Assembly: GCA_965248755.1 (NCBI GenBank)
Contig: OZ252149.1
Span: 4,252,314-4,316,313, forward strand
DNA length: 64,000 bases
Reading direction: 5' to 3'
From: Candidatus Latescibacterota bacterium
GTDB taxonomy: Bacteria; Latescibacterota; CBDEFO01
Notes under the pieces: generated by a model
The model's database searches: none
What the model saw: the letters and a program-made list of their open reading frames with translations, nothing else
Told to the model about the DNA's origin: nothing
Program-made: the position numbers and the translations under genes
Shown: piece by piece, positions 16,114-61,853 of the stretch
Layout of the letters: each line of letters begins with the position of its first letter
Numbering within the stretch: position 1 is the stretch's first letter

Positions 16114-16138
16114 CGATTCGTGTCCCAGAATTTCAGCT

Positions 16139-36601: not shown

Positions 36602-37613
36602 ATGGCAAGAGATATTAGAGACTTCATAATGAACTTGAGGTATTCACGAAAACCGGCGGACATTGTGATCGAGAATATGATTGAAGAAGTTCGTGATGGT
36701 ACGCTTATTGTCGACCACCCTTTAACGGTAAAGCAATTTCTGGAAGTCGTTGAAAAAAGGTGGGCAGAAATTTCGCCTCGTCTAATTCAATTACTCTTCA
36801 AGCTCTTACTAAGTGAGTCTGAAAAAGCAGAGCTGCCTCCATCTTCTCATGATCAAATCCGCTCTATGTTGGTGGAGATACTAGGTAAGTTCAAGACTTC
36901 ACCTCTTATTGAGGATGAAGTGGTGATAAGGAAAAGACGGGAAAAGAATCTGGAATATGCGCTGCAAGCTGTGGAGGAGATCTAAATCCAAGAAAAGGAT
37001 AGACTTCTCTTCTTCCTAGGAGCAGGAGCTTCAAAGCCAGAGCCTTCAAATATCCCGACAATAAACGAATTGCTCCCAGAGATTTGGAAAAAATCAAGTC
37101 GAATGGAATCAAGGCCTCTTGAAAAACTTCAGCTATGGTGCACTGAAAACAACATATAAAACATCGAAGAAATGCTTACCGCAGTGACCCTCTCCAATTC
37201 TATAATCAAGGACTCGAAGGTTCACGGGCTTTTTAATTCGGTACTATATCCTGACGATACTTCGGAACAGACTTCCATTAGGGACATAGACACTTGATGA
37301 TTACATTTCAAAAATGTTAGTCAAAGCAGTAGGTCAAGATCCAGAAAAACATGTAATCGCTGTTAATATTGATCACGAAGCAATCGATAGATGCAAATCC
37401 TTTATTAAACTACACGTGGAAGCTTTTGATGAAGATAAGAGGTTCTTTTCTATGCGAGGAGATGGAACCGAGCTTGTACCCAAGATAACAAGAGTGCTCA
37501 CTGAAGTCCCGAAGAAAATATCAAAAAAACGCTCAATAGACCCGTCGAACAGGAATGGAGACTCTAAACCTCCGTCAGATCTACGGGCAACCGCGGACCT
37601 CTCTACAGACTAG
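36602..37613 (+). pseudogene. degraded SIR2-like (DHS-like NAD-binding) gene
   Basis: ORF 36602..36985 ends at TAA; in the same frame follows IQEKDRLLFFLGAGASKPEPSNIPTINELLPEIW (FLGAGxS...IP...EL, SIR2_2-like); later segments in other frames include HVIAVNIDHEAIDR (TTNYD-like); at least one in-frame stop and two frame changes. Confidence 0.35.
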
Positions 37614-37638
37614 CCATAATCATCAGACGAGGCTCACA

Positions 37639-38217
37639 ATGACCCTCAAGGTCGTAATCTTCGACATGGACGGGACTATAACGAAGCCTTATATAGACTG
37701 GAAATCCCTCAGAGATGAAATAGGCATCCCACAGAATGAAATAATTATTGACTACATCGAATCTCTACCTTTCCAAGAAAGAAAAAGGGCTAACCGAATC
37801 CTTGAAATGCTAGAAGGGGAAGCCGCCCAAAACTCTGAGATCAACGAAGGAGCTGAAGAACTCCTTCAATTCCTTAAAGAAAAAGGCATAAAGACGGCCC
37901 TGGTCACGAATAACAACAGGCGGGCGATGGAACACGTCCTTGAAAGACACAGTCTGGATTTTGATATCCTGTTAAGCAGGGAAGATGGATCGGTCAAGCC
38001 CTCGGAAGAGTTGATATTAAGAGCCCTCGACCGCACAGGAGCAGAAAAAGATCAAGCCATCGCAGTGGGAGATGGACGATTTGATTTAGAAGCGAGCAAG
38101 AAAGCAGGAGTCAGATGCATTTACCTATCCAACTCTACCCCTGCGTTAGAACATAACTTCACAGCGCATACCTTACACGACGTAGTGGAAATAATAGACA
38201 AACTCACAGAGGCATAA
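37639..38217 (+). CDS. HAD-superfamily hydrolase
   Basis: N-terminal VVIFDMDGTIT (HAD motif I) and later GDGRFD; start at internal ATG. Confidence 0.7.
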   Translation: MTLKVVIFDMDGTITKPYIDWKSLRDEIGIPQNEIIIDYIESLPFQERKRANRILEMLEGEAAQNSEINEGAEELLQFLKEKGIKTALVTNNNRRAMEHVLERHSLDFDILLSREDGSVKPSEELILRALDRTGAEKDQAIAVGDGRFDLEASKKAGVRCIYLSNSTPALEHNFTAHTLHDVVEIIDKLTEA

Positions 38218-38239
38218 ACTAAGGAGTGAGGCGATCACT

Positions 38240-38413
38240 GTGCGAAAGCTTGCGCTTTTTGTCACAATTGCAGGACTTTCAGCGACGGGAGCCATTTTTT
38301 TCCTGGGAAAGAGGAGGAGGGTCTGCCCTGAGTGCAAAAGACGAGTGCAGGGTAATTGGAAATATTGTCCCCACGACGGCGCGAAGACTGAAGCCAAATA
38401 CGAATGGGATTAA
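38240..38413 (+). CDS. small membrane-anchored zinc-ribbon protein (not in ORF track)
   Basis: 57 codons from GTG with AAGGAG about 13 nt upstream; one TM helix then [19 protein letters not shown]. Confidence 0.35.
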
Positions 38414-38865
38414 GCGGGAGAATTGGCGTGCCAAAGATACTGGTCATACATGGTCCAAACCTCAATTTACTCGGCACAAGAGAGCCCGAAATATACGGTT
38501 TACAAACTTTACAGGATATAAATAAAGCTGTAGAGGACTTATCTTGTGAATTAGACGCAGATGTGCAAATATTCCAGTCTAACCACGAAGGCGAAATCGT
38601 AGACCAGATCCAAAAGGCGGGGGAGTGGGCGGACGGCATCCTCATCAACCCCGGAGCATTTACACACTACAGTATCGCAATAAGAGACGCCCTTTCCGCG
38701 GTAGATCTTCCTGCAGTAGAGGTCCATCTGTCAAACCTACACGCAAGGGAAGATTTCAGAAAGAATTCTGTCATAGCTTCCGTATGCACAGGACAAATAT
38801 CCGGATTTGAGGCAAGCAGCTATCTTTTGGGACTCAGAGCCTTAGTAGGTAAACTGAAAGAATAG
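38404..38865 (+). CDS. aroQ: 3-dehydroquinate dehydratase, type II
   Basis: [23 protein letters not shown]...[12 protein letters not shown] motifs; start may be a few codons downstream. Confidence 0.85.
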
Positions 38866-38880
38866 CTTTGGAACTTCGAT

Positions 38881-39984
38881 ATGGCCAGATCGTACACACA
38901 TAAGATAAAACCCCAGGTGAGAGGGCTAACTCCCTATACTCTCAAGCAGTACGACTACGACGTGAAGCTCAATCAGAACGAAAATCCATTCGACTTTCCG
39001 CAAGAGATAAAAGAAGAAGTCCTTCAATTTGCCCGGGAAAGATGTTGGTCGAGATATCCAGACTTCACACAGAAAGATATGGTACAAGCCCTCTCAAGGT
39101 ACACAGGATGGCCGGAAGATGGAATTTTGGTCGGAAACGGTTCAAACGAACTGGTGCAGGCTACCCTCATAACTTTTATAGACGCTCCAGACACGACCGT
39201 GCTCATACCTACTCCCACGTTCACGCTCTACAGGCTGCTCTGCAAAGCCTTGGGAGCCAATGTCCTTGAGGTCTATCTTACTGAGAACTACAGATTCGAC
39301 ATAGAAGCTATAAAAGATGCCACTGAGACAAATTTTCCCGACGTTATGATATTCTGCTCTCCCAACAATCCGACAGGATGTGTCCTGGAAAACAGCGACA
39401 TTGAAGACCTTCTAAACCTCTCTGACGGCCTGATCGTAGTGGACGAAGCCTACTATGAATTCAGGGGCGAAACCTGCTTTTGCCTTTTGAAGGACTATCC
39501 CAATCTGATAATCTTTAGGACCTTCTCAAAAGCCCTTAGTCTTGCTGGACTCAGAATCGGATATCTTATGGCACATCCTGAGCTTGTAGAGCAAATATCT
39601 AAAGTCAAACTCCCGTACAACCTCAATTTCTTCTCACAGATAGCGGCGATGAAAGCCCTCGAAAATAGAGATCTACTGCAAAAGAACATAGACTATCTTA
39701 TCGGACAAAGGGACATCCTCTACAATGCACTCAAAGACATAGAGGGCGTGGTACCCTATCCCTCCTACGCCAACTTCATCCTCTTTGAGACACAATCGAA
39801 TTCTAAAGATATATTTGAGGGACTACTTCAGCAAGGCGTTCTAATTAGGGATGTCAGCGGTTATCCGATGCTTTCTCGTGCCCTAAGATTCAACGTCGGC
39901 ATCCAAGAGGAGAATACAAGATTTCTGGATGCCCTAAAAGAGACAGTGCGCTCGGCGCTTCGAAAAGGAAGTTTAAGCGTATGA
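38881..39984 (+). CDS. hisC: histidinol-phosphate aminotransferase
   Basis: 367 aa; class II aminotransferase layout, LNQNENPF start region. Confidence 0.85.
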
Positions 39985-40577
39985 GCTCTAAAAGACAGAG
40001 TCGTATAGAAAGAGGGACTGCAGAGACACAGATAGAACTCGTGCTCGACCTTGACGGAAGAGGGAAAGCCGACATCGATACGGGAATCGGCTTTTTTGAC
40101 CACATGCTCGAGCTTTTTGCAAAGCATGGGTTCTTCGACCTTACTGTCAAATGTAAGGGCGACCTTAGTGTAGATCCGCATCATACGGTCGAAGACACAG
40201 GGATATGTCTGGGGTCCGCTATCGTTCAGGCTTCAGGGGACAAATCTGGCATCGTAAGATACGGATGCAGCTACGTGCCTATGGACGAAGCCCTTGCAAG
40301 GGTCGTTGTAGATCTTTCAGGACGCTCATCTTTCATCTTTAACGCTGAGATAAGGGACCGAAAGATAGGCCAGTTCCCGATGGAACTCTTGCCGGACTTC
40401 TTCAAAGCCGCAGCCGACAACGCTAAGATGAACCTGCATATAGACCTTATTAGGGGAGAAAATAGCCATCACTCGTCAGAGGCCATCTTTAAAGCCTTCG
40501 CCAGGGCCCTTGACCAGGCCTCGTCAATAAGCCAAAGAGTTCAGGGCGTCCTGTCTACCAAGGGGACTCTGCAGTGA
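39981..40577 (+). CDS. hisB: imidazoleglycerol-phosphate dehydratase
   Basis: 198 aa; [16 protein letters not shown] and [11 protein letters not shown] motifs; 4-nt overlap with hisC. Confidence 0.9.
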
Positions 40578-41665
40578 GTACAGAGGTAAAATACGACTGC
40601 AGATACTTCAAAGGCGACGTCCCCTGCAAATTCAATAAATTAGACGGCTCCGTCTGCGAGTGCTGTGGGCACTACGATAAGGTGGAGGGGAAGATACTCA
40701 TTATAAAGCTCGGCAGGGCCGGAGACGTTATAAGGACCACCCCTCTTTTGAGAAGACTCAAATATGTCTATCCAAAATCCCACATAACGTGGCTCACATG
40801 CTTTCCAGAATTCGTTCCGGATATAGTGGACTGCGTATTTACGTTCGATCCTCAAAACATCCTGTATCTCCAGCAGGTGCACTTTGATATCCTTTACAAC
40901 CTGGACAAGGATGTGGAAGGCTGCACCCTTGCTAACATAGTTTCCGCGGCCACAAAAAAAGGCTTCCACCTCAAAGACGGAAAATGCCATCCTATAGACA
41001 AAGACGCAGAGCACAAGTTCCTCACAGGCATATTCGATCAGGTGAGCAAAGCCAACACCAAAAGCTATCCTCATGAAATTTTCGAGATATGCGGCTTTGA
41101 ATTTAAAGGGGAGGAGTATATCCTCGAGAACTTCGCATCAGAGGGCTATAACTGGAGGATAGAGGAGCCGAAGCCCCTTGTAGGATTAAACACCGGCTGC
41201 GGTGGCACGTGGAGATCCAGACTCTGGGGCCAGGAAAAGTGGGTAGAGCTGGCACAGAGCCTCAAATCACAAGGCATAGGCGTCGTGCTACTGGGCGGAG
41301 AGGGGGAACACGAAAGGAATACATATATCTCAAAAGAAAGCAAAGCAAGCTATCTGGGATACTTCCCTATCAGGAAATTCGTCAACCTGATAGATCAATG
41401 TAACACCGTAGTGACAGCCGTCACCATGGCTACCCACATAGCTATAGGGCGTAGAAAAGGCATAGTCCTCTTAAACAACACGTTCAACCCCAGCGAATTT
41501 GAACTCTACGAATTGGGACAGATTGTAGAGCCTGACTTTGACTGTGACTGCTACTATTCTCCGATATGTCCCAACGACTGCATGCAGTACATCAGTCCCC
41601 AGAAGGTCTTTAACACATGTCTTGCAGTCCTCGAAAGCCAGGGGGAAAATCTTAATCTCTTATGA
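40574..41665 (+). CDS. glycosyltransferase family 9 (heptosyltransferase-like) with N-terminal Cys-rich segment
   Basis: [19 protein letters not shown] and GLNTGCGG...VVLLGGEGE pattern of GT9; N-terminal C-x7-C...C-x-CC. Confidence 0.7.
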
Positions 41666-42822
41666 GAATTTACTTCATAGCTCCTGCTTATCCTCTAAGA
41701 GGTGGCATAGCTCAATACACAGCTCTACTTTACAAGAAAATGCAAGAGAGAGGACACGGGGTGAAAATCATCTCGTTCAAACGGCAGTACCCGGAGTTCC
41801 TCTTCCCCGGAAAGACACAGAAGGAGAGTGGAAAACAGATCATTCGTACCGATAGCGAGGCCATAATCGACACTCTCAATCCGCTGACCTGGCTTAAGGC
41901 TTTTGCAAAGATCAAAGCCGAGCGACCTGACCTGATAATCTTCAAGTACTGGCTCCCTTTCTTTGCTCCCTGCTATATCACCATCTCACTCTTGGTGCGC
42001 CTTTTTACAGAGTATAAAGTCCTTTACATCTGCCACAACATAATCCCTCACGAAAAGCGTCTGGGAGACACTGTACTTACAAAGATAGCCCTGAGATACT
42101 CAGACTACTTCATCGTCCTATCGGACGCGGTCAAAGGTGATCTCCTCAGATTCCGTCCCGACGCTGTGTATAGAAAAGTGCCGCTTCCTGTCTATGATTT
42201 ATTCCACACAAACTACGATAAAATTACAGCCAGACGAAAGCTCAAAATCCAAAAGGAGAGGGTCATCCTGTTTTTCGGATACATAAGGGCTTATAAGGGC
42301 CTGCATCTTATTTTGCAGGCTATGCCCTACGTCCTTAAGCACATAGACATCACCCTCGTAGTTGCCGGAGAGTTTTACGATTCGAAAGAGAAGTACACAG
42401 ACCTTATTGAAGAGCTCAATCTAAATGATCACGTGGAGATATTCGACAGCTTTATACCGGACGAAGAAGTAGGGACCTATTTTGCCGCCGCAGACGCCGT
42501 AGTACTCCCCTATATATCCGCCACGCAGAGCGCAATCGCTCAGATAGCCTACAACTTCGATAAGCCGGTCATAGCCACAGATGTTGGAGGTCTTTCAGAA
42601 GTCGTAGTCAACGAAAAGACAGGCTACATCGTCTGCCCCGAAGATCCTGAGGCTTTCGCAGATGCCATCGTCAAATTCTACTCCCAGAACAAAAATCGGG
42701 AATTCGTTTCGAACGTCAAAGTGGAAAAGGGCAAATATTCGTGGGACAGGATGGCAGAGGCTGTAGAGAGCCTGTTAGCCACAGGGTCAAGCCGTTCCTC
42801 GAAGAGAGGAGAGTCCCGATAA
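41662..42822 (+). CDS. glycosyltransferase family 4 (group 1)
   Basis: C-terminal GT4-like core VVLPYISATQSAIAQIAYNFDKPVIATDVGGLSEVV. Confidence 0.75.
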   Translation: MRIYFIAPAYPLRGGIAQYTALLYKKMQERGHGVKIISFKRQYPEFLFPGKTQKESGKQIIRTDSEAIIDTLNPLTWLKAFAKIKAERPDLIIFKYWLPFFAPCYITISLLVRLFTEYKVLYICHNIIPHEKRLGDTVLTKIALRYSDYFIVLSDAVKGDLLRFRPDAVYRKVPLPVYDLFHTNYDKITARRKLKIQKERVILFFGYIRAYKGLHLILQAMPYVLKHIDITLVVAGEFYDSKEKYTDLIEELNLNDHVEIFDSFIPDEEVGTYFAAADAVVLPYISATQSAIAQIAYNFDKPVIATDVGGLSEVVVNEKTGYIVCPEDPEAFADAIVKFYSQNKNREFVSNVKVEKGKYSWDRMAEAVESLLATGSSRSSKRGESR

Positions 42823-42828
42823 GAAAGT

Positions 42829-43782
42829 ATGGATGAAAAGAAAGAGACATCACAGAACAGCGTTGCAAGTTCCGATCTGCCGTTGGTCTTTGTGATCGTT
42901 TTAAACTGGAACGGGAAAGAGGATCTGTTGCGGTGTCTGGGTTCACTTTCCGGGGTCGAATACGGCAATTTCAAAACGCTGGTGGTTGACAACGCTTCTG
43001 AGGACGGCTCCGTCCAGGCAGTCAGGGAGAATTTCCCCGAAGTTAAGGTCATCCAGAACAGCCGGAACTTGATGTTCTCCGAGGGTAACAACGTCGGGAT
43101 GGAATATGCTTTAAGCCAAAGCTCCGATTATGTTCTCCTGCTAAATAATGACATTGTAGTCGCTCCGCAGTTTCTAACCGAGATGGTCTTGGTGGCTCAA
43201 AGCGATCCTCTTATCGGGATGGTAGGACCCAAAATATACTATTATGATAATCCCCAAAGGTTATGGTTCGCAGGTGGAAAGGTGGAATTATGGAGGGGAA
43301 GGATAAGCCATTTAGGAATAAGAGAGTTCGATTCTGGGCAGTACGATTCTACAAGGGATATAGATTATGTAACAGGCTGTGCGATTCTGGTCAAAAGAGA
43401 AGTCATAGCAAAAGTCGGTATGCTCGATGCTTCGTATTATATTTACTCGGAGGATGTGGACTGGTGCTGGAGAGCTAAAAACGCCCAATATAGATCGGTA
43501 TTAGCACCAAAGGCTAAAATCTGGCATAGGATTTCAGCCTCTACAGGAGGAGAATTGACGCCGTTCAAGGTATACTGGAGGATAAAAAGCAGCTTAAGAT
43601 TCTACAGAAGATACGCAAGTTGGTATCATTGGCTGACGGTGCCTATATTCGTCTCTTTTGACACAGCCAAGTTTGCATTAAGGCAGATATTTAAGGGGAA
43701 TTTTGAGATAGTGTCCTCACTGTTGAGAGGCTTTAAGGACTCGCTTACAGGGAGCAAAGTTCCGACTGGAACAATACGATAA
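42829..43782 (+). CDS. glycosyltransferase family 2
   Basis: VIVLNWNGKEDLLRCL...VVDNASEDGS...LLLNNDIVV pattern. Confidence 0.75.
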   Translation: MDEKKETSQNSVASSDLPLVFVIVLNWNGKEDLLRCLGSLSGVEYGNFKTLVVDNASEDGSVQAVRENFPEVKVIQNSRNLMFSEGNNVGMEYALSQSSDYVLLLNNDIVVAPQFLTEMVLVAQSDPLIGMVGPKIYYYDNPQRLWFAGGKVELWRGRISHLGIREFDSGQYDSTRDIDYVTGCAILVKREVIAKVGMLDASYYIYSEDVDWCWRAKNAQYRSVLAPKAKIWHRISASTGGELTPFKVYWRIKSSLRFYRRYASWYHWLTVPIFVSFDTAKFALRQIFKGNFEIVSSLLRGFKDSLTGSKVPTGTIR

Positions 43783-43800
43783 GCGGCCGAATATAAATAG

Positions 43801-45141
43801 ATGCAACTGAGCAGGTATCTACACGAGGGCATCTGGGCGTTTCTGGATAAGTCCCTGCCCCTTATTTACGGCGTCTTTTTTATAGTCCTTGTGATTCGGA
43901 CACTGCCTGAGGAGGAATATGGACTCTTTGTTTTAACTTATAATGGCATATTCATCACACTGACGTTAATTAGCAAGACTCTGATACTACAGCCGATGAT
44001 AAAATATGTATCAGAAAAGGATGATACTAAAGCTGTAGTTACCCAAACGATATTTCTCAATTTTGCCATATTAGCGCTCTTTGTGCTTATCGTTATCCCG
44101 TCTTCGCCGATTGTAGCCAGGTTATTCCATTCATCTCGACTTGTTCCCCTTTTGAAGTTTGTGCCCTTTTTGTTAGCAGCCCACTTTATGAAGGACATAA
44201 CCTTGGGACTGCTCACCGCCAAATATCGGATGAAGGAGGTATTTTGTCTTGACGCTGTCTATTTTCTCGGCTCTGCCCTTTTGATGCTGGTCTATAATCT
44301 GATGGGCCGTATGGACAGCGCACAAGACGTGTTGACGATTACGTGTTTTACGGCACTGGCAGCCTCGATAGCAGGGACTTTCCTGTCGAGGGACCTGTTA
44401 AGGCTCGACTGGAAAATAGACTTCAACACTATAAGGACAATTCTTAACTTCGGCAAGTACACTTTGGGTTCGGGCGTTGGAAATATACTGCATACTCAGA
44501 TAGACACCCTTATGATCGGCTACTTTTACGATCCCTTTCAGGTCGCCTTGTACAACGCCGCCAAGATCTTTTTCAAGATATACAATGTCTTCTCACAGGC
44601 AATAAGCATGTTAGTTTTCCCGTTAGTCTCGAAGTTGCACGCAGAGGGCAAGCAAGATGAGATCAAAGCGCTCTTTGAAAAGATGGTCTGTTTTTATTAT
44701 ATTATTCTGATCCCCTTTAATTTAGTGCTGTTGGTACTTTCAAAAGAGATATTTGAAATTGCCTATGCAGGCAGATATCCTGACTCTGCTAAGATATTTA
44801 TAGTTTTAATTATCGGGACGTTCCTAAGCCCATTAGGAACTGTAGGTTCTAACATTATCCTTGGAATCGAAAAGCCCAAGATCAATTTTAGAATTACCTG
44901 GCTTGCGGTAGCCTCCAATGTAATCTTGAATCTTCTATTTATTCCCAGATATGGAGCCTTCGGAGCCGCGGTTGCCACTGTTTTCTCCATGGGGATCGGT
45001 TATATACTTATTGCTGTGTTCACAAAAAGGATAACCGGCGCAACCTTTACAGGTGTCCTTGTAAGAGTGAAAGATGCGGCAAACTTTGGGAGGGAGATAT
45101 TGAGTAATGTGCAAAAAAACTTTTCTGGAGAGATACGATAG
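43801..45141 (+). CDS. polysaccharide biosynthesis membrane protein (Wzx-like flippase, MOP superfamily)
   Basis: 446 aa, about 12 predicted TM helices, position within GT cluster. Confidence 0.6.
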   Translation: MQLSRYLHEGIWAFLDKSLPLIYGVFFIVLVIRTLPEEEYGLFVLTYNGIFITLTLISKTLILQPMIKYVSEKDDTKAVVTQTIFLNFAILALFVLIVIPSSPIVARLFHSSRLVPLLKFVPFLLAAHFMKDITLGLLTAKYRMKEVFCLDAVYFLGSALLMLVYNLMGRMDSAQDVLTITCFTALAASIAGTFLSRDLLRLDWKIDFNTIRTILNFGKYTLGSGVGNILHTQIDTLMIGYFYDPFQVALYNAAKIFFKIYNVFSQAISMLVFPLVSKLHAEGKQDEIKALFEKMVCFYYIILIPFNLVLLVLSKEIFEIAYAGRYPDSAKIFIVLIIGTFLSPLGTVGSNIILGIEKPKINFRITWLAVASNVILNLLFIPRYGAFGAAVATVFSMGIGYILIAVFTKRITGATFTGVLVRVKDAANFGREILSNVQKNFSGEIR

Positions 45142-45168
45142 GGATTTATCCTGACGGGGAAGTTCCGA

Positions 45169-45828
45169 ATGAAATTTAATCCTTCATATGTGGAAGAACG
45201 TCCTGATGTACTTTCACTAATCCGGCCTGGCATAAGAAATTTGCTTGACATTGGCTGTAGTGATGGAACATTTGCCCTGTCTGTGAAGAATAAATTCAAA
45301 TCTGTAGAGGTCTTAGGAGTTGAACTTGATCCTTCTATGGCTTCTGTTGCTAAACAAAGATTAGATATGGTTCATATTGCTGATTTAAACAAGGTTAATC
45401 TCAGTAATCTTTTTCCAGAGAAAACATTTGATTGTATAGTAATGGCAGATGTTTTAGAGCACCTTATTGATCCATGGAATATCATCAAACAAGCTTCATC
45501 TCTTTTGGCTGACAATGGAAGGATTGTTACAAGTATCCCAAATGTTCGTCACATTTCTACAGTTATAAGTCTAGTATTGAAAGGGAAATGGCCATACAGA
45601 AAACGTGGCATTCATGACATGAACCATCTACGATTCTTTACTCATTCAAACATTGTCGAAATGTTTGATAAAGCAGAATTGAAAATAGTTAGAGAAAAAA
45701 GGAATATGAGGATTGTTGAGCGCAGTTTTAAAAAAATAGATATATTTGCTAAGTTATTTGATATTCTAGGATTAAGAGAGTTTTTTACAATTCAGTATTT
45801 ACATGAATGTGTTCTATCTGACGAATAA
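45169..45828 (+). CDS. SAM-dependent methyltransferase
   Basis: LLDIGCSDGTFALSV (motif I) and IVMADVLEHLIDP. Confidence 0.7.
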   Translation: MKFNPSYVEERPDVLSLIRPGIRNLLDIGCSDGTFALSVKNKFKSVEVLGVELDPSMASVAKQRLDMVHIADLNKVNLSNLFPEKTFDCIVMADVLEHLIDPWNIIKQASSLLADNGRIVTSIPNVRHISTVISLVLKGKWPYRKRGIHDMNHLRFFTHSNIVEMFDKAELKIVREKRNMRIVERSFKKIDIFAKLFDILGLREFFTIQYLHECVLSDE

Positions 45829-45994
45829 AAGAATCCGTGGTTTTCAGCGGGCTTACAGCGTCTAAGAGAGTAACATCTGGATGGTCACTATTCATCATTA
45901 GACTCAGGGAATTCGCGATGCTCAAGATCGCTTTCGCCAGGAAACTTATCCAGGGGAACATAACCGTAAGACGCGTTGAAGGAGCAAAGCCAAG

Positions 45995-46927
45995 ATGGAT
46001 AGAAGGGTTAGCATCTTTATTCTTAACTACAACGGAAGAGATCTTTTAGAGGAATATCTTCCTTCTGTAATGGAGGCTGTGGAGTACGATAGCGGCGGAC
46101 ACGAGATTGTCGTTGTAGACAATCTCAGCACGGATGACAGCGTGGAGTTTGTGGAGAGGAACTTCCCTGGGGTCTGTGTCAAGAGGATGGAGGTAAACAG
46201 ACTGTTCTTTTCTTATAATCGGGTCGTAAAAGAGTGTAAAAACGATTATATTATCCTCCTAAACACCGATGTGAAGGTTGTAGAGCCCCACTTTGTAAGT
46301 CCTCTTTTAAGACATTTTTCTGATCCCGATGTCTTTGCAGTTATGCCCAAGGTCCTATCCGACAATCCTTCAGCAGAGTACCTTTGCAGATGTCCCGGTG
46401 TCTTTTGGCGGGGTTTTCTAAAGGCAGAGAAACGGGAAAAGTTTCCGGGGAGCGGATTTACACTCTTTGCGCTTGGAGGAGCAGCCGCCTACGACAGAGA
46501 GAAGTTTTTGGAACTCGGTGGATTCGATGATATTTATTACCCCGGGTATTCTGAAGACGTGGATATTTCCTATTTAGCGTGGATGAGAGGATGGAAGATT
46601 ATCTTTGAACCTGAAAGCGTGGTGTTTCACAAGAAAGGCACTACGTTCAAAAGGACTTATAAAGATGATATGATACAGGCGCAAGAGGAGAAGGTAGCGA
46701 TGCTCTTTGTCCTAAAGAATATATCTGATAGAAAGCTATTAGCAAGTTTTCTCTTTTGGTCGGTGCTCAGATTGGGTCAAAGGATTTTACAAACTAACTA
46801 CCCTAAAATAAAGGCTTATTGGAATATTATAAAAGATTTACCCAGGATTTTGTCGTCTCGAAACAGGACGAAGGCTTTCAGGAAGATTTCAGATAGGGAG
46901 ATACTTCAAATCATAAGGGATAATTAG
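45995..46927 (+). CDS. glycosyltransferase family 2
   Basis: VSIFILNYNGRDLLEEYL...VVDNLSTDDS...LLNTDVKV pattern. Confidence 0.75.
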   Translation: MDRRVSIFILNYNGRDLLEEYLPSVMEAVEYDSGGHEIVVVDNLSTDDSVEFVERNFPGVCVKRMEVNRLFFSYNRVVKECKNDYIILLNTDVKVVEPHFVSPLLRHFSDPDVFAVMPKVLSDNPSAEYLCRCPGVFWRGFLKAEKREKFPGSGFTLFALGGAAAYDREKFLELGGFDDIYYPGYSEDVDISYLAWMRGWKIIFEPESVVFHKKGTTFKRTYKDDMIQAQEEKVAMLFVLKNISDRKLLASFLFWSVLRLGQRILQTNYPKIKAYWNIIKDLPRILSSRNRTKAFRKISDREILQIIRDN

Positions 46928-47084
46928 TTTGAACGCTTGCAGGGGAGCATTTCATAGTCAGCCGGAAGTTCCTTGGAAGAGATAGTTTCTATGGCAGAGG
47001 AACTGTAGGTCCTGCCGGGGAAGACAGTGCGGTTCAGCTCCTTGCAGAATATAAAAAACTGTGTAAGGAGAAAAGGGAACAAAA

Positions 47085-48176
47085 TTGAAGATCATCTTAT
47101 CAGCAGGGGTTCGACCTAAGTTTATGAAGGTTGCACCGCTTGTGGAGGAGATTAGGAAGTTTCCGGAGAATCTTCAGGCTTCTCTCATTCACACAGGATA
47201 GCACTACGATGATCCAATGTCCAGGGTGTTCTTCTGTGATCTGAAACTTCCCAAACCGGACAGATATTTGAACGTGGGATCGGGAACTCACGCAGTCCAG
47301 ACGGCCGGAGTGATGGTGGTATTTGAGCAGGTACTTTTAGAGGAAATGCCAGATTTAGTAATAGTGGTGGGAGATGTGAACTCGACTTTAGGGTGCGCAC
47401 TTATCGCCGCCAAACTGGGCATTAAGCTGGCGCACGTGGAAGCAGGACTGCGCAGTTGGGACCGCACGATGCCTGAGGAGATTAATCGGGTTGTGACCGA
47501 CTTAATTTCGGATCTACTGTTCACACCTTCGGAGCATGCAGACGAGAACCTACTCCACGAGGGGATACCCCAAGAGAAGATATTTTTCGTGGGGAATATA
47601 ATGGTCGATTCTCTGCTTAGATCTAAGCGGATAGCGTTAAGATCCAAGATCCTGGAAGAGATAGGTTCAGCAGAAGACAACTACTGTCTGGTGACGCTGC
47701 ACCGTCCATCTAACGTCGATGTAAAGGGGGTCCTATCTGGAATCATCAATGCATTAGACAAGATTCAGGAGCAGATTAAGGTAGTCTTTCCCGCTCATCC
47801 CAGGACGCAAAAGATGCTCCGGGACTTTGAACTGCTCAGAGTCTTGGAGGGTATGGATAATCTGACTTTGATAGAACCCTTAGGCTATCTGGATTTCTTG
47901 AAGCTTGAGATATGCGCAGAGGTAGTGTTGACCGATTCCGGTGGGATACAAGCGGAGACGACAGTTTTAGGGGTGCCGTGTCTAACTTTGAGGGAGAATA
48001 CGGAAAGCCCCACGACTGTCGAGATCGGGACAAATCTGGTCGTGGGAAACCGAGAAGATGATATCGTGGTTGCAGTATATAAGGTTCTACAAAGTAAGGG
48101 TAAAAAGTGGAGCATTACAAAATTCTGGGATGGTCGAACATCAGAGCGGATCGTCAGGATATTGAAAGGTATTTAA
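47085..48176 (+). pseudogene. wecB: UDP-N-acetylglucosamine 2-epimerase (non-hydrolysing) with in-frame amber codon at 47199-47201
   Basis: TTG start after GGAG; translation LKIILSAGVRPKFMKVAPLVEE...SLIHTG-stop-HYDDPMS continues in the same frame into ORF 47217..48176; the stop sits where this family usually has Gln. Confidence 0.65.
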
Positions 48177-48234
48177 GCCTGATTTAAGTGCGCCGTTATC
48201 CAATGCACAAGATCGATACCGTCAGCATTAACAG

Positions 48235-49395
48235 GTGACAAGACAGATGTTAAAACTTGTGGTCTTTTCGGAGATCAAGTGGAGTTACCTAAAAACTCGC
48301 AAACAACAGATCATAAGTCGATTTCCAAAAGATTGGCGCATACTTTTCATTGAGCCTTTTGTCCTCGGCACACGCAATCAGTTCTTGCCAAAAAAGACAC
48401 AAAACGTCATACACGCAACAGTCCCGTTTTTCAAAATCGTTCCGGAGGGGGTTGTACGAAGAACATTAGATGAGAGAATCGCCAGAGCTATTATCAGTAC
48501 TTTAGTCTTTTTATGGGTAAAAGCGATCTTCTTATTAACCGGCTTCACCGGAAAAAAGAGGGTCTTTTTCGTATCTAATATATACTACTCTTATGTTGTG
48601 CAAAGGCTTGCCAAAGCTCTCGTGCTATACGACTGCAACGACAATCCTTTAGCATTTCCCGGCACTCCCGGGTGGGCTGAAGGTTATTTTCATAAACTCA
48701 GTCGGCTCTCCGACGTGATATTTTACTCCGCTGTGGAGCTCAGCAAAAAGGTAGATTCTTGCCAAAGGCACAAGACAGTTTTCATCGGCAACGGAGTCGA
48801 TTTCGAACTCTTTCAAGGAGAGCTAGTACACGACGAAGGGGCCCTGGAACTTAATCGCATTTCTGGGACGATTATCGCTTATGTTGGAGCTATCGATAGT
48901 CGGATGGATTTCCAGTTATTGGCTAAGATCGCCTCTGCATATCCGTCTGCTTCGATGGTATTCATAGGCCCGGTGGCTCCCAAGGTATCCGAAGAAGTCC
49001 AAGAGCTGAAGGAATACCCCAATATTTTTCTTTTAGGCACGAAGGTGCACGATGTTCTACCGTCGTATTTGAAAAGGGCTAAGGTATGTATTATCCCATT
49101 TGTAAAAAATGAGCTTACCGCCTCAGTAAATCCGGATAAGCTATATGAGTACTTAGCGGCAGGAAAGCCTGTAGTGACGTTGGATTTTTCCCCTGAAGTG
49201 TCTCAATACAGTGAGATCATTTATGTAGCTTGTGACCACGAAGATTTTACCAAGAAGGTGGGCCTGGCTCTAAGTAAGGAGCATGATACGGAGAAAATGA
49301 AGGCTATAGCCCGGGCAAACGATTGGAGTCAGAAGGCAAAGCAGATGATAGCTATTATTGACGAGTGCCTTAATAATAAGAAAGATTGCTCGTAG
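48235..49395 (+). CDS. glycosyltransferase, group 1-like
   Basis: C-terminal half has GT1/GT4 pattern (AYVGAIDSRMD...FIGPVAP...IPF...KLYEYLAAGKPVV). Confidence 0.6.
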   Translation: MTRQMLKLVVFSEIKWSYLKTRKQQIISRFPKDWRILFIEPFVLGTRNQFLPKKTQNVIHATVPFFKIVPEGVVRRTLDERIARAIISTLVFLWVKAIFLLTGFTGKKRVFFVSNIYYSYVVQRLAKALVLYDCNDNPLAFPGTPGWAEGYFHKLSRLSDVIFYSAVELSKKVDSCQRHKTVFIGNGVDFELFQGELVHDEGALELNRISGTIIAYVGAIDSRMDFQLLAKIASAYPSASMVFIGPVAPKVSEEVQELKEYPNIFLLGTKVHDVLPSYLKRAKVCIIPFVKNELTASVNPDKLYEYLAAGKPVVTLDFSPEVSQYSEIIYVACDHEDFTKKVGLALSKEHDTEKMKAIARANDWSQKAKQMIAIIDECLNNKKDCS

Positions 49396-49495
49396 GCGAT
49401 ACACTGCTCCCCATCCTCAAAGAGAGTTTCACTGGGAACTTGTCTCCTTGTGTCTTAGCTTCTTCACTGTACCATCCCCAAAGTGTTGAACACAG

Positions 49496-49717
49496 TTGAC
49501 AGCTTGCCTGAAAGAATATTACACCATACTGTTCCCCGTGGAATGCATGGGATTTAATTCTGCCCCTGAGGTTACCGCCAAAGTGTTAAAGAGGGGATAT
49601 AAAATCTACGAAGTACCGATTTCATACGGTCCGAGAGGAAAAGAAAAGGGCAAGAAGCTACGCTGGAACGTCGGCTTAAAGGCTATTTGTACTCTGATAA
49701 AATATCGTTTTCTGTAA
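49496..49717 (+). pseudogene. C-terminal fragment of a GT2 polyprenyl-phosphate glycosyltransferase (gene remnant)
   Basis: Only about 50 aa (RGYKIYEVPISYGPRGKEKGKKLRW...) resembling the tail of GtrB/ArnC-like GT2 enzymes such as the intact paralogue at 52257..53225. Confidence 0.4.
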
Positions 49718-49801
49718 GGTTTTTATCAGGAGGAGGTTGTCATTAATTCCAAAAGACAAAAAAGGGCCCAAAAAAGGAAACCGAGCGCAGGGGAGCCCAA
49801 A

Positions 49802-52279
49802 ATGTCAGCCTTCGTATTCTCCGAAAGAGGAAAAGAACTGATAGCGTGCTGTTTAATATTCGTATTAGTCCTGATATTGTTTCGCGAAGTGATCTTTCAG
49901 AATAAGAGCTTTGTCGTTCCGGACAGCAAGGCTCCCGCCGCTTTGACGGCACCTATGAGCGAGTCGTTGAACAACGATGGTATCTATCCGCTCTGGCATC
50001 CCTATATCTTCAGCGGTATGCCCTCCTTTGCAAGTCTGATATACAACCCCTATGTCTATGTACTCGGTGCCCTTATGTCTATATTCAATTTTGTTCTGCC
50101 TCCACTGAGCTGGCTTTGGATACACTATTTTCTGGCTGGATTTTTTACATTTATCTTGATGAGGTCGAAGAAGATAAGCATTTCGGGAGCTCTCCTTTCG
50201 GCAGTGACCTTTACCTTCACGCCGTACTTGGTGGCTATGGGGACGTTCGGGCACGGGAGCCAGATGATGACAGCTGCATATATACCCTTGGCTTTTTGGG
50301 CAGTCGACAGGCTCCTCGAAAAGAGGAGCATCCTGTATATCGCCTTGACGGCGTTAGCGCTCGGCCTTCAACTGCAAAGAGGTCACGTCCAGATTGCGTA
50401 CTACACCTGGATGATGCTCGGCCTCTACTTTGTCTATTTTTCGTACTTGAGGCTTCGATCCGGAGCATCGGCTACGGACGTCTTGAAAACTGGCGGACTT
50501 TTAGCCATAGCCCTGGTATGGGCGTTTGCCTTAGCCTCTGTCCTCTACCTGCCCGTTTACAACTATACTCCCTATTCCATACGGGGCGGCGGTTCAGAAG
50601 GTGGCGTGGGATTCGAATATGCCACTGGTTGGTCGTTTCATCCTAAGGAGATGCTGACCTTCTTGGTGCCCTCTTTCTTCGGCTTCGGCGGCATTACCTA
50701 CTGGGGAAAGATGCCCTTCACCGATTTCCCCAACTATATGGGCCTAATCCCGCTTTTTCTTGCAATCTTAGCGCTGATCTGGAGGAGGAACAAGACTACC
50801 GTCTTTTTCGGAATCCTCATATTCGTCTCACTTTTGGCATCCTTCGGCAGACATTTTTTCTTCTACCAGTTCCTCTACGACTTTCTGCCCTTCTTCAAAA
50901 AGTTCCGCGTGCCCGTCATGATCCTTATAATGGTTCAATTTTCCGTCGCCGTGATGGCGGGCTATGGGCTGGACAATCTGATTAGATTTTCCCGGGAAAA
51001 GATGGAAAAAACTACAAGCGAAAAGATTAAGAGGCTCACAAAGCGCCTCGCCATCGCCATCGGAGTCCTGATAGCCGCAGGCTTGATCCTGAGCCTTGGA
51101 AAGAAGTCGTTTTTCGGGACAATGTCAGAGATATATCCCCAAAGTGCCAGATACACCATTTTGGAACTTAATCAGATGAGATTCGACATGTTCTATAAGG
51201 ATACCTGGAAGATGATATTTCTCTTTGCTATCGGGGGCGGCATAACTATCGGACTTTTAAAAAGATATGTAAGGCCTCATCTTTTCGGAATAGCTCTCCT
51301 TTTTCTGGCGACAGCAGACCTGTGGTTGGTAGACTTTAAGCTCATTCGTCCCTCTGGGCGGGGAGAGATGAACCGGTATTTAGCTCAGGATGAGACGATA
51401 GAGTTCATAAAAAGGGATGAGGACATCTTTCGAATATTCCCTGTAGGCAGGCTCTTTTCGGATAACAAATGGGCCGCACATCGCATCTTTTCTATCGGGG
51501 GATACCACGCGGCCAAGTTGAAGATATATCAGGAATTTTTGAGCGAGCAAGGCATCCCCGAGGGATTCCTTGCGAAGTACCTGAAGCCCTCTCGTACCAC
51601 CGAGCAGGGCTACGTCCTGAAGGATATAGACGAAGTTTCACTCAAAGATCGCCGCGCCCACTCTGCGGCTCTGGACATGCTGAATGTCAAATACGTCGTC
51701 TCTCCATATCCTATCCCCGATCCACAGTACAGGTTAGTGGCACAGAAGAAGGGCTATATAGACCGACATGAAACTTCACTGAACATCTATCAAAAGCAGA
51801 GTGTGCTCCCGAGAACCTTTCTTGTCGGGAAAGTCAAAGTCGTCCCAGACGAAAACAAAATCCTGGATGAGATGAGATCCGGGGCGTTCGACCCCCACGA
51901 GTATGCCCTTTTGGAGGAAGTTCCCGAGTTTGAACCTGAAAGTGTCGAAAGCAGCTTTGCAAGGATCACAGATTATGGAATTCATAACATAAAGCTTGAG
52001 GCTTCCAACCTCAAGCCCTGTCTTTTGGTCTTAAGTGAGATATATTATCCTGAAGGTTGGAAAGCTCGTCTGGATGGGGAAGAGGTAAAAATATACAAGA
52101 CTAACTACCTGCTCAGGTCAATCCTCCTTCCTCCCGGTGATCACAGGGTTGAGTTTGTCTTCGATCCCTGGGATTTTAAGTTGGGGCTTTGGATAAGCGT
52201 TGGGGCATGGGCACTGCTGATAGGCTTACTTTCTCTGAAAGGGGTACGATATTATCGTGCAGAAAGAGGACAAAAGTAG
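49802..52279 (+). CDS. YfhO-family polytopic membrane protein (GT-C-like glycosyltransferase)
   Basis: 825 aa; N-terminal multi-TM domain, large extracytoplasmic domain, C-terminal TM; family assignment by overall architecture. Confidence 0.65.
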   Translation: MSAFVFSERGKELIACCLIFVLVLILFREVIFQNKSFVVPDSKAPAALTAPMSESLNNDGIYPLWHPYIFSGMPSFASLIYNPYVYVLGALMSIFNFVLPPLSWLWIHYFLAGFFTFILMRSKKISISGALLSAVTFTFTPYLVAMGTFGHGSQMMTAAYIPLAFWAVDRLLEKRSILYIALTALALGLQLQRGHVQIAYYTWMMLGLYFVYFSYLRLRSGASATDVLKTGGLLAIALVWAFALASVLYLPVYNYTPYSIRGGGSEGGVGFEYATGWSFHPKEMLTFLVPSFFGFGGITYWGKMPFTDFPNYMGLIPLFLAILALIWRRNKTTVFFGILIFVSLLASFGRHFFFYQFLYDFLPFFKKFRVPVMILIMVQFSVAVMAGYGLDNLIRFSREKMEKTTSEKIKRLTKRLAIAIGVLIAAGLILSLGKKSFFGTMSEIYPQSARYTILELNQMRFDMFYKDTWKMIFLFAIGGGITIGLLKRYVRPHLFGIALLFLATADLWLVDFKLIRPSGRGEMNRYLAQDETIEFIKRDEDIFRIFPVGRLFSDNKWAAHRIFSIGGYHAAKLKIYQEFLSEQGIPEGFLAKYLKPSRTTEQGYVLKDIDEVSLKDRRAHSAALDMLNVKYVVSPYPIPDPQYRLVAQKKGYIDRHETSLNIYQKQSVLPRTFLVGKVKVVPDENKILDEMRSGAFDPHEYALLEEVPEFEPESVESSFARITDYGIHNIKLEASNLKPCLLVLSEIYYPEGWKARLDGEEVKIYKTNYLLRSILLPPGDHRVEFVFDPWDFKLGLWISVGAWALLIGLLSLKGVRYYRAERGQK

Positions 52280-53225
52280 AGCTGAAGACGCGAAAAGAAA
52301 GAGCTTTTTTTCGATTGTGATCCCCCTCTTGAACGAGAGACCAAGCCTCAAAGAGCTCTTTTTCAGGATCAAGAGCGTAATGGGGGAGGTGGAGAAAGGA
52401 TACGAGGTAATCTTTATAGACGACGGGAGCACGGACGGCTCGTTTGAGATCTTAGAGGAATTGAAAAAAGATAACAAAGAGGTGGTAGCGATTCAGTTCA
52501 GAAGGAACTGCGGGAAAGCTGCCGCTCTATCTGCGGGATTTGAACAGGCACAGGGCGAGGTTATCGTAACGATGGACGCCGATCTTCAGGACGATCCTGA
52601 GGAGATACCCAATGTCATACAGAAGATAAACGAGGGTTATGACATCGTCTCCGGATGGAAGAAAGAGAGGAAGGACCCTATAGGGAAGCGGCTCTCCTCC
52701 AAGGTCTTCAACTTCGTCACTTCGCTTGTCACAGGTGTGCATCTCCACGACATCAACTGTGGGCTTAAGGCCTACAGATGGGAAGTGGCAAAGGACATCA
52801 CTCTTTACGGAGAACTCCACAGGTACGTCCCTGTCCTCGCCTACTGGAAGGGGTACAAAGTAGGAGAACTCGCCGTGGTGCATCACCCCCGAAAGTTCGG
52901 AAAGAGCAAATACGGAGTAAAGAGGTTTCTAAGCGGTTTCTTCGATCTTTTGACGGTTATGATGATAACCAGATACCTTACAAAGCCCCTGCACCTCTTC
53001 GGCACAGTTGGAGTCATACTCACACTGGCAGGAACGGCCATAAACTCATATCTTACGTACCACAAACTCACAACCGGTTCACTCGGTGGACGTTATCCAC
53101 TTTTGATGTTGGGAATCCTTTTGATGATAGTAGGCATACAATTTGTCTCAACTGGACTCCTTGCTGAGATAATGACGACCTCGATGGGAAAAGAGAAATA
53201 CCCCATCAGAAAGATATTGGAGTAG
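52257..53225 (+). CDS. GT2 polyprenyl-phosphate sugar synthase (GtrB/CsbB/ArnC-like)
   Basis: FSIVIPLLNE...IFIDDGSTDGS...VTMDADLQDDPEEIP and two C-terminal TM helices. Confidence 0.8.
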   Translation: MQKEDKSRAEDAKRKSFFSIVIPLLNERPSLKELFFRIKSVMGEVEKGYEVIFIDDGSTDGSFEILEELKKDNKEVVAIQFRRNCGKAAALSAGFEQAQGEVIVTMDADLQDDPEEIPNVIQKINEGYDIVSGWKKERKDPIGKRLSSKVFNFVTSLVTGVHLHDINCGLKAYRWEVAKDITLYGELHRYVPVLAYWKGYKVGELAVVHHPRKFGKSKYGVKRFLSGFFDLLTVMMITRYLTKPLHLFGTVGVILTLAGTAINSYLTYHKLTTGSLGGRYPLLMLGILLMIVGIQFVSTGLLAEIMTTSMGKEKYPIRKILE

Positions 53226-54378: not shown

Positions 54379-54990
54379 ATGGTTGAGCTTTTCAGTAAGG
54401 GCGGATCTTTTATGTATCCGCTCCTGTTCTTATTTGTCGTCGGAGTAGCTATAATTTTGGAGCGCATCTGGACACTCACCAGGGCTTCTGTCAATACGAA
54501 GAGATTCTTCTTTCGGCTCCAAACCGCCCTTGAGGAAAATGGTCCTGAAGGAGCAGCTATGGTCTGCGCTGATACAAGGGGTCCCGCTGCGACTGTCATC
54601 CATGCCGGACTTCTAAGGCTCCCAAGGGGAATTGATCACGTAGAAAAGGCAATTGGTGATTCAGGAGCTATCGAAATGGCATTTTTGGAAAAGGGGATGG
54701 TCTGGCTCGCTACGGTTGCCAACATAGCTCCCATGATAGGCTTCTTAGGGACCGTACGGGGTATGATAAGGGCGTTTCAAGCCATCGCTGAGGCGGGGGA
54801 TGTGGAGCCCACGCTCGTGGCTTCTGGAATATCCGAAGCGCTCATTACCACTGCAGCCGGACTCGCCGTGGCTATACCGATGCAGTTCTTTCACAATCTC
54901 TTCGTCTCCAGAATTGACAAGATCGTTATCGAAATGCAGGAGACCTCTACAGCCTTTGTGGATAGTCTTATCGAAAAAGAGTTTGGTTAG
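54379..54990 (+). CDS. exbB: MotA/TolQ/ExbB proton-channel protein
   Basis: 203 aa, three TM segments, IAPMIGFLGTVRGMI motif. Confidence 0.85.
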   Translation: MVELFSKGGSFMYPLLFLFVVGVAIILERIWTLTRASVNTKRFFFRLQTALEENGPEGAAMVCADTRGPAATVIHAGLLRLPRGIDHVEKAIGDSGAIEMAFLEKGMVWLATVANIAPMIGFLGTVRGMIRAFQAIAEAGDVEPTLVASGISEALITTAAGLAVAIPMQFFHNLFVSRIDKIVIEMQETSTAFVDSLIEKEFG

Positions 54991-61022: not shown

Positions 61023-61534
61023 GCTGAAAAGAGCCTGGTAACTCTTCTATGTACACGTCAGTAACAAATCATAATATTGACGGAATCTATTCCATAGCGG
61101 CTTCGGAGGAAAAAAGGCAGTTGATGCAAATACACATCAACGAACTCATCTGGACGTTCGCTGAAGTGAAGCCACGTTGAGCCACCACCTTCAGCGTGGC
61201 TCAACATAGGTACTCCGCAGAGCGGAGCTTCAAACCCCATGCTTGGGTGCTATCCCCTACACCCCCCGAGATTGCATTCATTCGCACTTACGCGCGATGG
61301 TATTCTGTCATAACTTTTGGTTCTTCTCCAAAAAGTGTAGTTATTGACGGAAGTAGTTTTTTGAGAATTTAATATTGAAAGGCATCTGTCTGTTCCTGTA
61401 TAGTTTATAGTAGTAAGAACAAACAAATACAGGAGGGGGACAGGATGCCTAGTGACATGAGAGCATAATGGCTTAACCTGCCGAAAGTAAGAGTTAATCG
61501 CGTAACGATCCATAGTGACAGCACCGAAATTTAT

Positions 61535-61819
61535 GTGGATCGAGATGCTCTCTTCGACTTTACTTGCTCTGGCTGTGGCCAGACATCCTTCTGGAGTTGG
61601 GATTGTCGGCAATTCAGGATTAGGGATCTGTCAGTTTTTGAATTTAAGGCCTACCTGATCATAGATAAATATCGCACCAATTGTCCAATCTGCGGGGTGA
61701 AGATTGAAGGACTTGACTTTGTTGATTCTTATTACCGATGCACTGCCGAACAATGGATTAAGGTAGGCAAATATGCTCTGAACTGGGTCCGGCTATCATG
61801 CCAGCGTCCCCGATTGTGA
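61535..61819 (+). pseudogene. ISL3-family transposase, N-terminal fragment
   Basis: CSGCG...RIRDLSVFEFKAYLIIDKYRTNCPICG matches the zf-ISL3 N-terminal pattern; ORF stops at the palindromic element. Confidence 0.5.
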
Positions 61820-61852
61820 TCCCCTATTGAATCTATAGGGGAGCGGGGATCA
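61807..61852. repeat. compound palindromic element (TCCCCGATTG + TGATCCCCTATTGAATCTATAGGGGAGCGGGGATCA)
   Basis: Contains the family loop TGAATCT in a nested hairpin; sits between the ISL3 and IS1380 fragments. Confidence 0.7.
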
Positions 61853-61853
61853 G

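Follow-up and report, generated by a model that had tools for sequence, protein, structure and literature searches.

A premature amber codon at an invariant glutamine position of wecB in a Latescibacterota surface-polysaccharide cluster, probably a recent loss-of-function allele

O-antigen and capsule genes have been inactivated in several classic cases, among them the IS5 insertion in rfb/wbbL of Escherichia coli K-12 and the rough variants. Nonsense codons may also be read through: TAG-to-Gln is a reassignment known from some phages, and suppressors of the supE type insert glutamine at amber codons. The gene analyzed here belongs to the nonhydrolyzing UDP-GlcNAc 2-epimerases of the WecB/MnaA/RffE family (TIGR00236, PF02350), with solved examples from Methanocaldococcus jannaschii (4NEQ), Bacillus anthracis (3BEO), and E. 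coli (1F6D). The glutamine of the HTGQH motif belongs to the allosteric site, where it contacts the effector UDP-GlcNAc (PMC10622841); the enzymes of P. alvei and B. anthracis lose more than 50-fold in kcat/Km when it is replaced by alanine (PMC11464976). In the Thermus thermophilus enzyme, Arg12, Gln14, and Lys17 bind pyrophosphate and sugar (PMC10622841).

We examined a 64-kb stretch of Latescibacterota DNA, referred to here as the window, in which a wecB-type gene is interrupted at the codon for this glutamine. Orthologous DNA was compared in three contigs, L001 (from ENA), L002 (from JGI), and L003 (a MAG contig), whose WecB proteins share about 88% (L001 and L003) and 81% (L002) amino acid identity with the window protein. 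Among the proteins found by database search, P0002 (88% identity) and P0003 (81%) are orthologs. The gene and its surroundings are laid out as follows.

40574..53225, forward strand: polysaccharide-biosynthesis cluster (Pfam; gene-by-gene comparison with L003 and L001)
47085..48176, forward strand: frame of a wecB-type nonhydrolyzing UDP-GlcNAc 2-epimerase (translation; TIGR00236 with Gln restored)
47085..47087, forward strand: TTG start of wecB (position common to L001, L002, and L003; profile aligned from residue 1)
47199..47201, forward strand: premature amber TAG, Q39* (sequence; CAG in L001, L002, and L003)
47217..48176, forward strand: residual 319-amino-acid ORF from an ATG, Met45 (ORF list; P0001 identical)
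48235..49395, forward strand: intact GT1-family glycosyltransferase gene (Pfam Glyco_trans_1_4 / Glycos_transf_1)

On the forward strand, 47085-48176 reads as 363 sense codons with a single stop among them and TAA at the end. The initial annotation had described a frame open from TTG 47085 to 48176 save for a TAG at 47199-47201, and this proved exact. The amber triplet is codon 39 (context ...ASLIHTG*HYDDPMSRV...) and replaces the Gln of the HTGQHY motif through a single C-to-T change at 47199, at a site that the sequence places outside any homopolymer. There is no indel and no second stop in wecB; this is its one disabling lesion. In the ORF listing, the frame appears in two parts, a 38-codon ORF from TTG (47085-47201) and a 319-codon ORF from ATG (47217-48176). 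The TTG start is supported by the TIGR00236 profile, which aligns from residue 1, and it lies at the same place in all three orthologs; L001 is nearly identical over the preceding 45 bases, and a purine stretch (AAGGG/AAGGAG) is found 7-14 nt upstream of the TTG.

With Gln restored, the protein matches TIGR00236, the wecB equivalog, with 348.8 bits (E value 3.6e-104; cutoff 210.15) over profile positions 1-363 of 366, in agreement with the name wecB first given to the gene. The model for hydrolyzing NeuC enzymes scores 83.5 on the same protein, below its cutoff of 235.9. The segment after the stop, taken alone, matches Pfam Epimerase_2 (PF02350) with an E value of 1.7e-99 from profile position 24. 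Judged from these matches, which cover family sequence before as well as after the stop, the frame is a genuine gene rather than an ORF that arose by chance. The full-length match thus exceeds the equivalog cutoff, and the uninterrupted two-domain frame of the family is missing here, the longest ORF being without residues 1-44. The public protein P0001 is exactly the 319-amino-acid residual ORF starting at ATG 47217 (100% identity); the stop thus belongs to the public deposit itself and is no window artefact. Taken together, the profile matches suggest that the locus is most likely a nonsense-inactivated member of the WecB/MnaA family, functionally a pseudogene or null allele.

The Gln-restored protein is collinear over its full length with the WecB/MnaA/RffE family. 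It shares the motifs of the catalytic region (DxNS, HVEAGLRS, PEE, HR, and DSGG.QxE) as well as the setting in a polysaccharide cluster. Among solved structures, it is closest to the M. jannaschii UDP-GlcNAc 2-epimerase 4NEQ (E value 1e-102), followed by the T. thermophilus UDP-GlcNAc3NAcA 2-epimerase (WbpI/WlbD type; 8SXV-8SYH), with 303 bits. It shares the allosteric Gln-His pair with the latter enzyme, whose Trp307 corresponds to a Trp at position 308 in L001 and L003. In contrast to that enzyme, the window copy has Ser308 in place of Trp and Lys12 in place of Gln, and its match to the UDP-GlcNAc epimerase and to TIGR00236 is stronger than that to the UDP-GlcNAc3NAcA 2-epimerase. What sets it apart from the WecB/MnaA/RffE family is the break at codon 39 and the substitutions N12K, E290A, and R308S, two of which fall at sugar-contacting positions.

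Codon 39 is CAG in all three close orthologs, so the comparison of orthologs agrees with the proposed one-step change from CAG to TAG; CAG is the ancestral state. In a MAFFT alignment, the column of this codon holds Gln in 119 of the 119 other homologs, within a near-invariant H-T-G-Q-H-Y-D block. The earlier statement that the family usually has Gln here was therefore correct and, if anything, understated. The lesion is one C-to-T transition on a functionally important, invariant codon.

Among the 120 sequences, the window copy departs most often from columns with 99% conservation or higher, with four differences (N12K, the stop, E290A, and R308S); 89 sequences show none, and the next highest shows three, the maximum among the 119 others. 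In the T. thermophilus UDP-GlcNAc3NAcA epimerase (numbering of PMC10622841), the residues aligned with positions 12 and 308 are Gln14 and Trp307, both of which contact the sugar, and position 308 varies in the sister lineage too, being R308W in L001 and L003. The ribose-binding, bridging Glu is kept (T. thermophilus Glu290, here position 291). By comparison with the numbering of that enzyme, Arg10, Lys15, His40, and Glu291 are present in the window WecB; the Arg, the position two residues after it, and the Lys of the G-x-R-P-x-x-x-K loop align with T. thermophilus Arg12, Gln14, and Lys17. The equivalents of the catalytic acids (D96 and E118/E132) were read from the alignment, and most substrate and allosteric residues are present, with Gln39 a stop. 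Since positions 12 and 308 are substrate contacts, the sisters have R308W, and the ribose Glu is kept, the deviant columns do not prove decay, and we take N12K, E290A, and R308S as weak evidence of it. The changes at positions 12 and 308 may reflect a substrate shift in this clade; to judge by these residues, even the Gln-restored protein might differ in substrate or activity.

The pattern of substitution dates the lesion. Pairwise dN/dS (Nei-Gojobori) for wecB is 0.26-0.28 against L001 and L003 (0.28 against L003) and 0.19 against L002, and the intact neighbors have similar values against L003 (GT9, 0.30; GT4, 0.24; GT2a, 0.25; wzx, 0.30). Branch counts by parsimony, with L002 as the outgroup, give ratios of nonsynonymous to synonymous changes of 15:18 on the window branch, 10:12 on the sister branch, and 34:48 on the stem. 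A long-standing, decayed pseudogene is not supported, given a dN/dS far from 1 and like that of intact neighbors and the presence of a single disabling lesion. Because wecB matches its intact neighbors in dN/dS, it has been under selection for essentially its whole history, and the stop, if real, is recent. These values support the recent nonsense mutation that the initial annotation had listed among its explanations.

The cluster around wecB is otherwise intact. Its genes run in the order GT9, GT4, GT2, Wzx-type flippase, methyltransferase, GT2, wecB (with the stop), GT1, YfhO-like membrane protein, and GT2, and all members except wecB are undamaged. The GT1 gene begins 58 nt 3' of wecB, and an orthologous gene follows wecB in L001; its transferase is likely the consumer of the epimerase product. 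A putative C-terminal remnant of a GT2 gene lies at 49490-49714 and has no Pfam match. Comparison with L003 divides the region into segments of different similarity.

37607-45155: flank, 95.6% identity to L003
45155-47015: methyltransferase and GT2 genes, no counterpart in L003
47015-49524: wecB-GT1 segment, 89% nucleotide identity to L003
49541-57266: flank, 97.2% identity to L003

The stretch 44001-46000, where the segment without a counterpart begins, has a GC content of 0.40. Synonymous divergence from L003 (dS) is 0.03-0.08 at the cluster edges and rises to 0.19-0.23 at wzx and wecB. This profile suggests a surface-glycan locus that diversifies by recombination, a familiar pattern, with wecB apparently in its most variable part. 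No wecB paralog that could compensate for the broken copy was found within the window. In L001, a second, fragmented Epimerase_2 gene is located beside transposases.

Other genes in the window are also damaged.

~14279-16347, reverse strand: pglF/capD/wbpM-type UDP-sugar 4,6-dehydratase gene in three pieces (profile and homolog alignment)
13368-14309: N-terminal part of a split wzi-like gene, which adjoins the pglF-like gene
11393-12268: C-terminal part of the same wzi-like gene
12370-13377: internally deleted remnant of an IS1380-family transposase gene, between the wzi-like halves
58020-59365: IS256-family copy with a split transposase gene
62264-63610: IS256-family copy, intact

The pglF-like gene has an in-frame TGA at 15550-15552, a GGA-to-TGA transversion at a Gly conserved in 105 of 120 homologs, and a one-base frameshift near 15205-15215, between the conserved CRQ and (F/Y)NP motifs. 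When rejoined, its protein aligns without a break to Campylobacter jejuni PglF (5BJU) across the junction. A close ortholog was sought to compare the lesions of this pglF/capD-like gene, and the best match had only 47% identity. The two IS256 copies are 99.6% identical, and a single-base deletion at 58882 (GGGG-CACC) splits the transposase of the first. The wzi-like gene split by an IS is a structural lesion, which sequencing or base-calling error cannot produce. Gene decay in this genome is therefore demonstrably real, and it is concentrated in surface-glycan and mobile-element genes. Frames are unbroken in all 16 window genes that can be aligned to L003 at their ends, whereas frameshifted genes occur in L001 and L003 themselves.

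TAG is used as a normal stop codon in the window. The 63 long ORFs, a simple nonoverlapping set with a standard-code (code 11) coverage of 87% of the window, end in TAA (25), TAG (21, or 33%), and TGA (17). Five of the TAG terminators stand at identical aligned positions in both L003 and L001.

38863: TAG stop of aroQ
45139: TAG stop of wzx
49393: TAG stop of the GT1 gene
52277: TAG stop of yfhO
53223: TAG stop of a GT2 gene

We listed every same-frame pair of open segments in the window with a single intervening stop and checked the TAG cases by Pfam. Apart from wecB, no gene in the window has family-matching sequence flanking a TAG; the other TAG pairs are adjacent complete genes (rimM/trmD, aroQ/hisC, wzx/methyltransferase, and HTH/GT4) or antisense noise. 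At the end of exbB, a TAG (54988-54990) stands where relatives have TCG (Ser), a change that trims a nonconserved tail of 10 residues. We considered this TAG as support for Gln decoding and rejected it, since a Ser codon is replaced and only a variable tail is affected. Reassignment of TAG, whether code 15-like or to pyrrolysine, was rejected as well, because within the window TAG is not depleted as a terminator and in-frame TAG does not recur at conserved sense positions.

Three alternatives to a real null allele may be considered, and two of them accept the stop but keep a functional product. If TAG were decoded, through a code 15-like reassignment, a suppressor tRNA-Gln(CUA), pyrrolysine, or programmed readthrough, full-length WecB would be made. 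That the stop sits exactly on an invariant Gln codon would agree with such decoding, and exbB offers a second TAG facing a sense codon in relatives, yet the codon replaced there is for Ser and not Gln. Moreover, a third of the long ORFs end in TAG, five of these stops are positionally conserved in relatives, and wecB is the sole case among the window pairs in which one TAG is flanked on either side by homologous coding sequence. The other in-frame stop in the window is a TGA, the sole tRNA within the 64-kb window is Arg-ACG, and the region is chromosomal rather than phage-like. Programmed readthrough would predict a conserved amber, whereas L001, L002, and L003 all have CAG. With code 15 (some large phages) and supE suppression, the window shares only the coincidence of an amber for Gln; in contrast to those systems, TAG is here a used and conserved terminator, with no second case and no suppressor tRNA in the window. 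Decoding of the TAG is therefore very improbable, and the suppression or recoding that the initial annotation had raised found no support, its proposed scan for in-frame TAG, carried out across the 64-kb window, having yielded no second conserved gene. A weaker form is conceivable, in which the amber is real and partly decoded as Gln, either by a suppressor tRNA(CUA) encoded elsewhere in the 4.5-Mb genome, on the chromosome or a mobile element, or by unusually leaky termination at UAG-C, a comparatively weak terminator context in E. coli; the base after the wecB TAG is C. We give this form only a very slight chance. Were it true, wecB and, through it, a ManNAc-containing surface glycan would be produced weakly or only under certain conditions, with the stop codon serving as a “dimmer” for a surface-polysaccharide gene of an uncultured phylum. 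It is equally hard to believe that translation restarts at ATG 47217 (Met45) and that the N-truncated 319-amino-acid protein keeps an epimerase or other function. An in-frame ATG does follow the stop by 15 nt, the depositors annotated the ORF that begins there, and restarts near nonsense codons are known in bacteria, for example, in lacI and T4 rIIB. However, the missing 44 residues hold the conserved G-x-R-P-x-x-x-K loop and the allosteric Gln-His pair, this N-terminal segment is kept in 119 of 119 homologs, and no Shine-Dalgarno-like sequence is found 5-10 nt upstream of ATG 47217.

The third alternative is an assembly or consensus error, according to which the organism would carry CAG and an unbroken wecB, the T having arisen as an artefact of base calling or polishing, for example, at a modified cytosine, or as a minority strain variant fixed in the consensus. 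A single-base transition in an otherwise intact gene with a dN/dS of 0.28 has the look of an error in a functional gene. The source is a single contig of 4.54 Mb and hence probably a long-read assembly, and the L001 and L003 assemblies, with their Flye-style contig names, contain obvious frameshifts; likewise, the pglF-like gene and one IS256 copy each lack a single base, which could be an indel error. The C-to-T class is the one favored by modification-linked nanopore miscalls: two reports describe nanopore basecallers as preferring C-to-T errors (G-to-A on the other strand) at modified bases (bioRxiv 10.64898/2026.01.14.699587; PMC11610603). The TAG allele is carried by one assembly only (the P0001 cluster has one member), and two metagenome DNA-pattern scans, one allele specific and one degenerate, found no independent copy of the allele, with the known relative L002 also unmatched there. 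Against an error, the Q39* site is not in a homopolymer. The initial annotation had reasoned that a substitution is less likely to be a homopolymer error; this is fair as far as it goes, but a consensus substitution error could still produce the change. Of greater weight is how rarely a substitution creates a stop. In the coding sequence of the window, 3.9% of all substitutions and 1.6% of transitions do so; two nonsense codons arising by random error thus imply dozens of substitution errors per 64 kb, which is difficult to reconcile with the clean frames in the rest of the window, including those of the 16 genes aligned to L003. Both nonsense codons of the window lie in polysaccharide genes, and the second, a transversion, shares its gene with a frameshift and adjoins the IS-split gene. 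Such clustering of lesions in dispensable surface-glycan genes is to be expected from (relaxed) selection rather than from random error. We regard a consensus error as the main rival explanation, possible but rather unlikely; if the T were one, the case would serve as a small caution on nonsense calls in long-read metagenome-assembled genomes. The scenario that best accommodates our results is that the T is probably real and that the locus carries a recent loss-of-function (null) wecB allele in a fast-changing polysaccharide locus.

For such a null allele, the consequences can be proposed step by step. The C-to-T transition would have turned the invariant Gln39 codon from CAG into an amber, and translation from TTG 47085 would end after 38 residues. 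A product restarted at Met45 would lack both the opening strand-loop-helix of the N-terminal Rossmann domain and the HTGQH allosteric motif. We infer that neither product would be active and that no useful UDP-GlcNAc 2-epimerase would come from the locus. The supply of UDP-ManNAc, or of the corresponding 2-epimer in this clade, to the downstream GT1 transferase would most likely be lost. The surface glycan would then be altered or abolished, one more step in its remodeling or loss, and a polar effect on the downstream genes may add to this.

Nothing in this scenario lies outside known kinds of events, as nonsense and IS knockouts are commonplace in O-antigen and capsule loci. The window resembles the classic knockouts in that one gene is broken in an otherwise intact glycan cluster, cassettes are exchanged between close relatives, and a second glycan locus carries an IS insertion together with point lesions. 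It differs from them in that the organism is uncultured and is known here from sequence alone. For annotation, the public 319-amino-acid “protein” is the tail of a broken wecB, and the gene should be annotated as a pseudogene with a stop inside its frame. For this Latescibacterota lineage, the finding would mean that surface-polysaccharide loci are remodeled as cassettes are exchanged with close relatives, ISs insert, and genes are inactivated by point mutations. Remodeling of this type is what phage or environmental pressure on cell-surface glycans usually leaves behind, and such pressure may be the selective context in which the wecB allele arose.

The polysaccharide cluster (window 40574-53225, + strand) is a mosaic when set against its closest relative, the Candidatus Latescibacterota MAG contig L003: its flanks are 95.6-97.2% identical to that contig, whereas the segment spanning wecB and the GT1 gene (47015-49524) reaches just 89%. 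Alignment to L003 found no counterpart there of the methyltransferase and GT2 segment at window 45155-47015, and the stretch in which this segment begins (44001-46000) has a GC content of 0.40. In both L003 and L001, a related ENA contig, a methyltransferase is placed elsewhere, after the GT1 gene. Across the cluster, dS increases toward the centre. Other features of the window include the following:

4954-8634, - strand: large FG-GAP/TIG repeat protein
11393-14309, - strand: wzi-like capsule-assembly gene (Pfam Wzi), split
14279-16347, - strand: pglF/capD/wbpM-type UDP-sugar 4,6-dehydratase gene, broken into three ORFs
30057-32622, - strand: large FG-GAP/TIG repeat protein
49490-49714, + strand: 75-codon open segment, inside the 406 nt that separate the GT1 gene from yfhO
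58020-59365: IS256-family (Mutator-type transposase) copy 1, transposase split
61469-61816: ISL3 zinc-ribbon fragment
62264-63610: IS256-family (Mutator-type transposase) copy 2, transposase intact, 415 aa

Compared by eye, the 75-codon segment looks like the C-terminal end of a GT2 (DPM1-like) glycosyltransferase. It could be what is left of a gene, but a Pfam search of it gave no match.

The pglF-type gene, whose product usually has about 620 aa, carries two lesions. One is an in-frame TGA (15550-15552) at a Gly position, the Gly being kept in 105 of 120 homologues; the other shifts the reading frame by 1 nt near 15205-15215, after one of the motifs CRQ and (F/Y)NP and before the other. Once rejoined, the protein aligns without a break to Campylobacter jejuni PglF (5BJU). 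The wzi-like gene is in two parts, an N-terminal one at 13368-14309 (Pfam Wzi profile positions 30-116) and a C-terminal one at 11393-12268 (positions 227-337), and between them lies an internally deleted remnant of an IS1380-family (DDE_Tnp_1_4) transposase (12370-13377). Another IS1380-family fragment, at 61839-62093, shows 94% identity over 158 bp. The two IS256-family copies share 99.6% identity over 1347 bp; copy 1 has lost one base at 58882 (GGGG-CACC versus GGGGACACC), and this single deletion splits its transposase into ORFs of 111 and 266 aa. The exbB/motA-family gene ends at a TAG (54988-54990); the codon there is TCG (Ser) in L001 and L003, whose frames run 10 codons further to a TGA. 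The TAG is a C-to-A change, and the loss is limited to a non-conserved C-terminal tail.

Frameshifts split several genes in the related assemblies: a GT4 gene, a second Epimerase_2 gene adjoining transposases, and wzx in L001 (1366-2527, 6328-7444 and 7509-8848), and in L003 the GT1 gene that lies downstream of wecB (around 11150-12310). The contigs have Flye-style names, which suggests that the splits are indel errors of long-read sequencing or else that these genomes are truly decaying. Within the window, the FG-GAP/TIG loci contain internally repeated DNA, with 72-82% identity both within each locus and between the two.

The wecB product departs from its family at codon 308 (window 48006-48008): the TERP motif has an Arg here that is invariant elsewhere, but the window has Ser, and L001 and L003 have Trp. 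This Trp corresponds to the sugar-contacting Trp307 of the Thermus thermophilus UDP-GlcNAc3NAcA 2-epimerase. Position 12, which is Lys in the window copy, is equivalent to the sugar-contacting Gln14 of the same enzyme. Going by these aligned residues, positions 308 and 12 may reflect a shift in substrate specificity of the epimerase in this clade.
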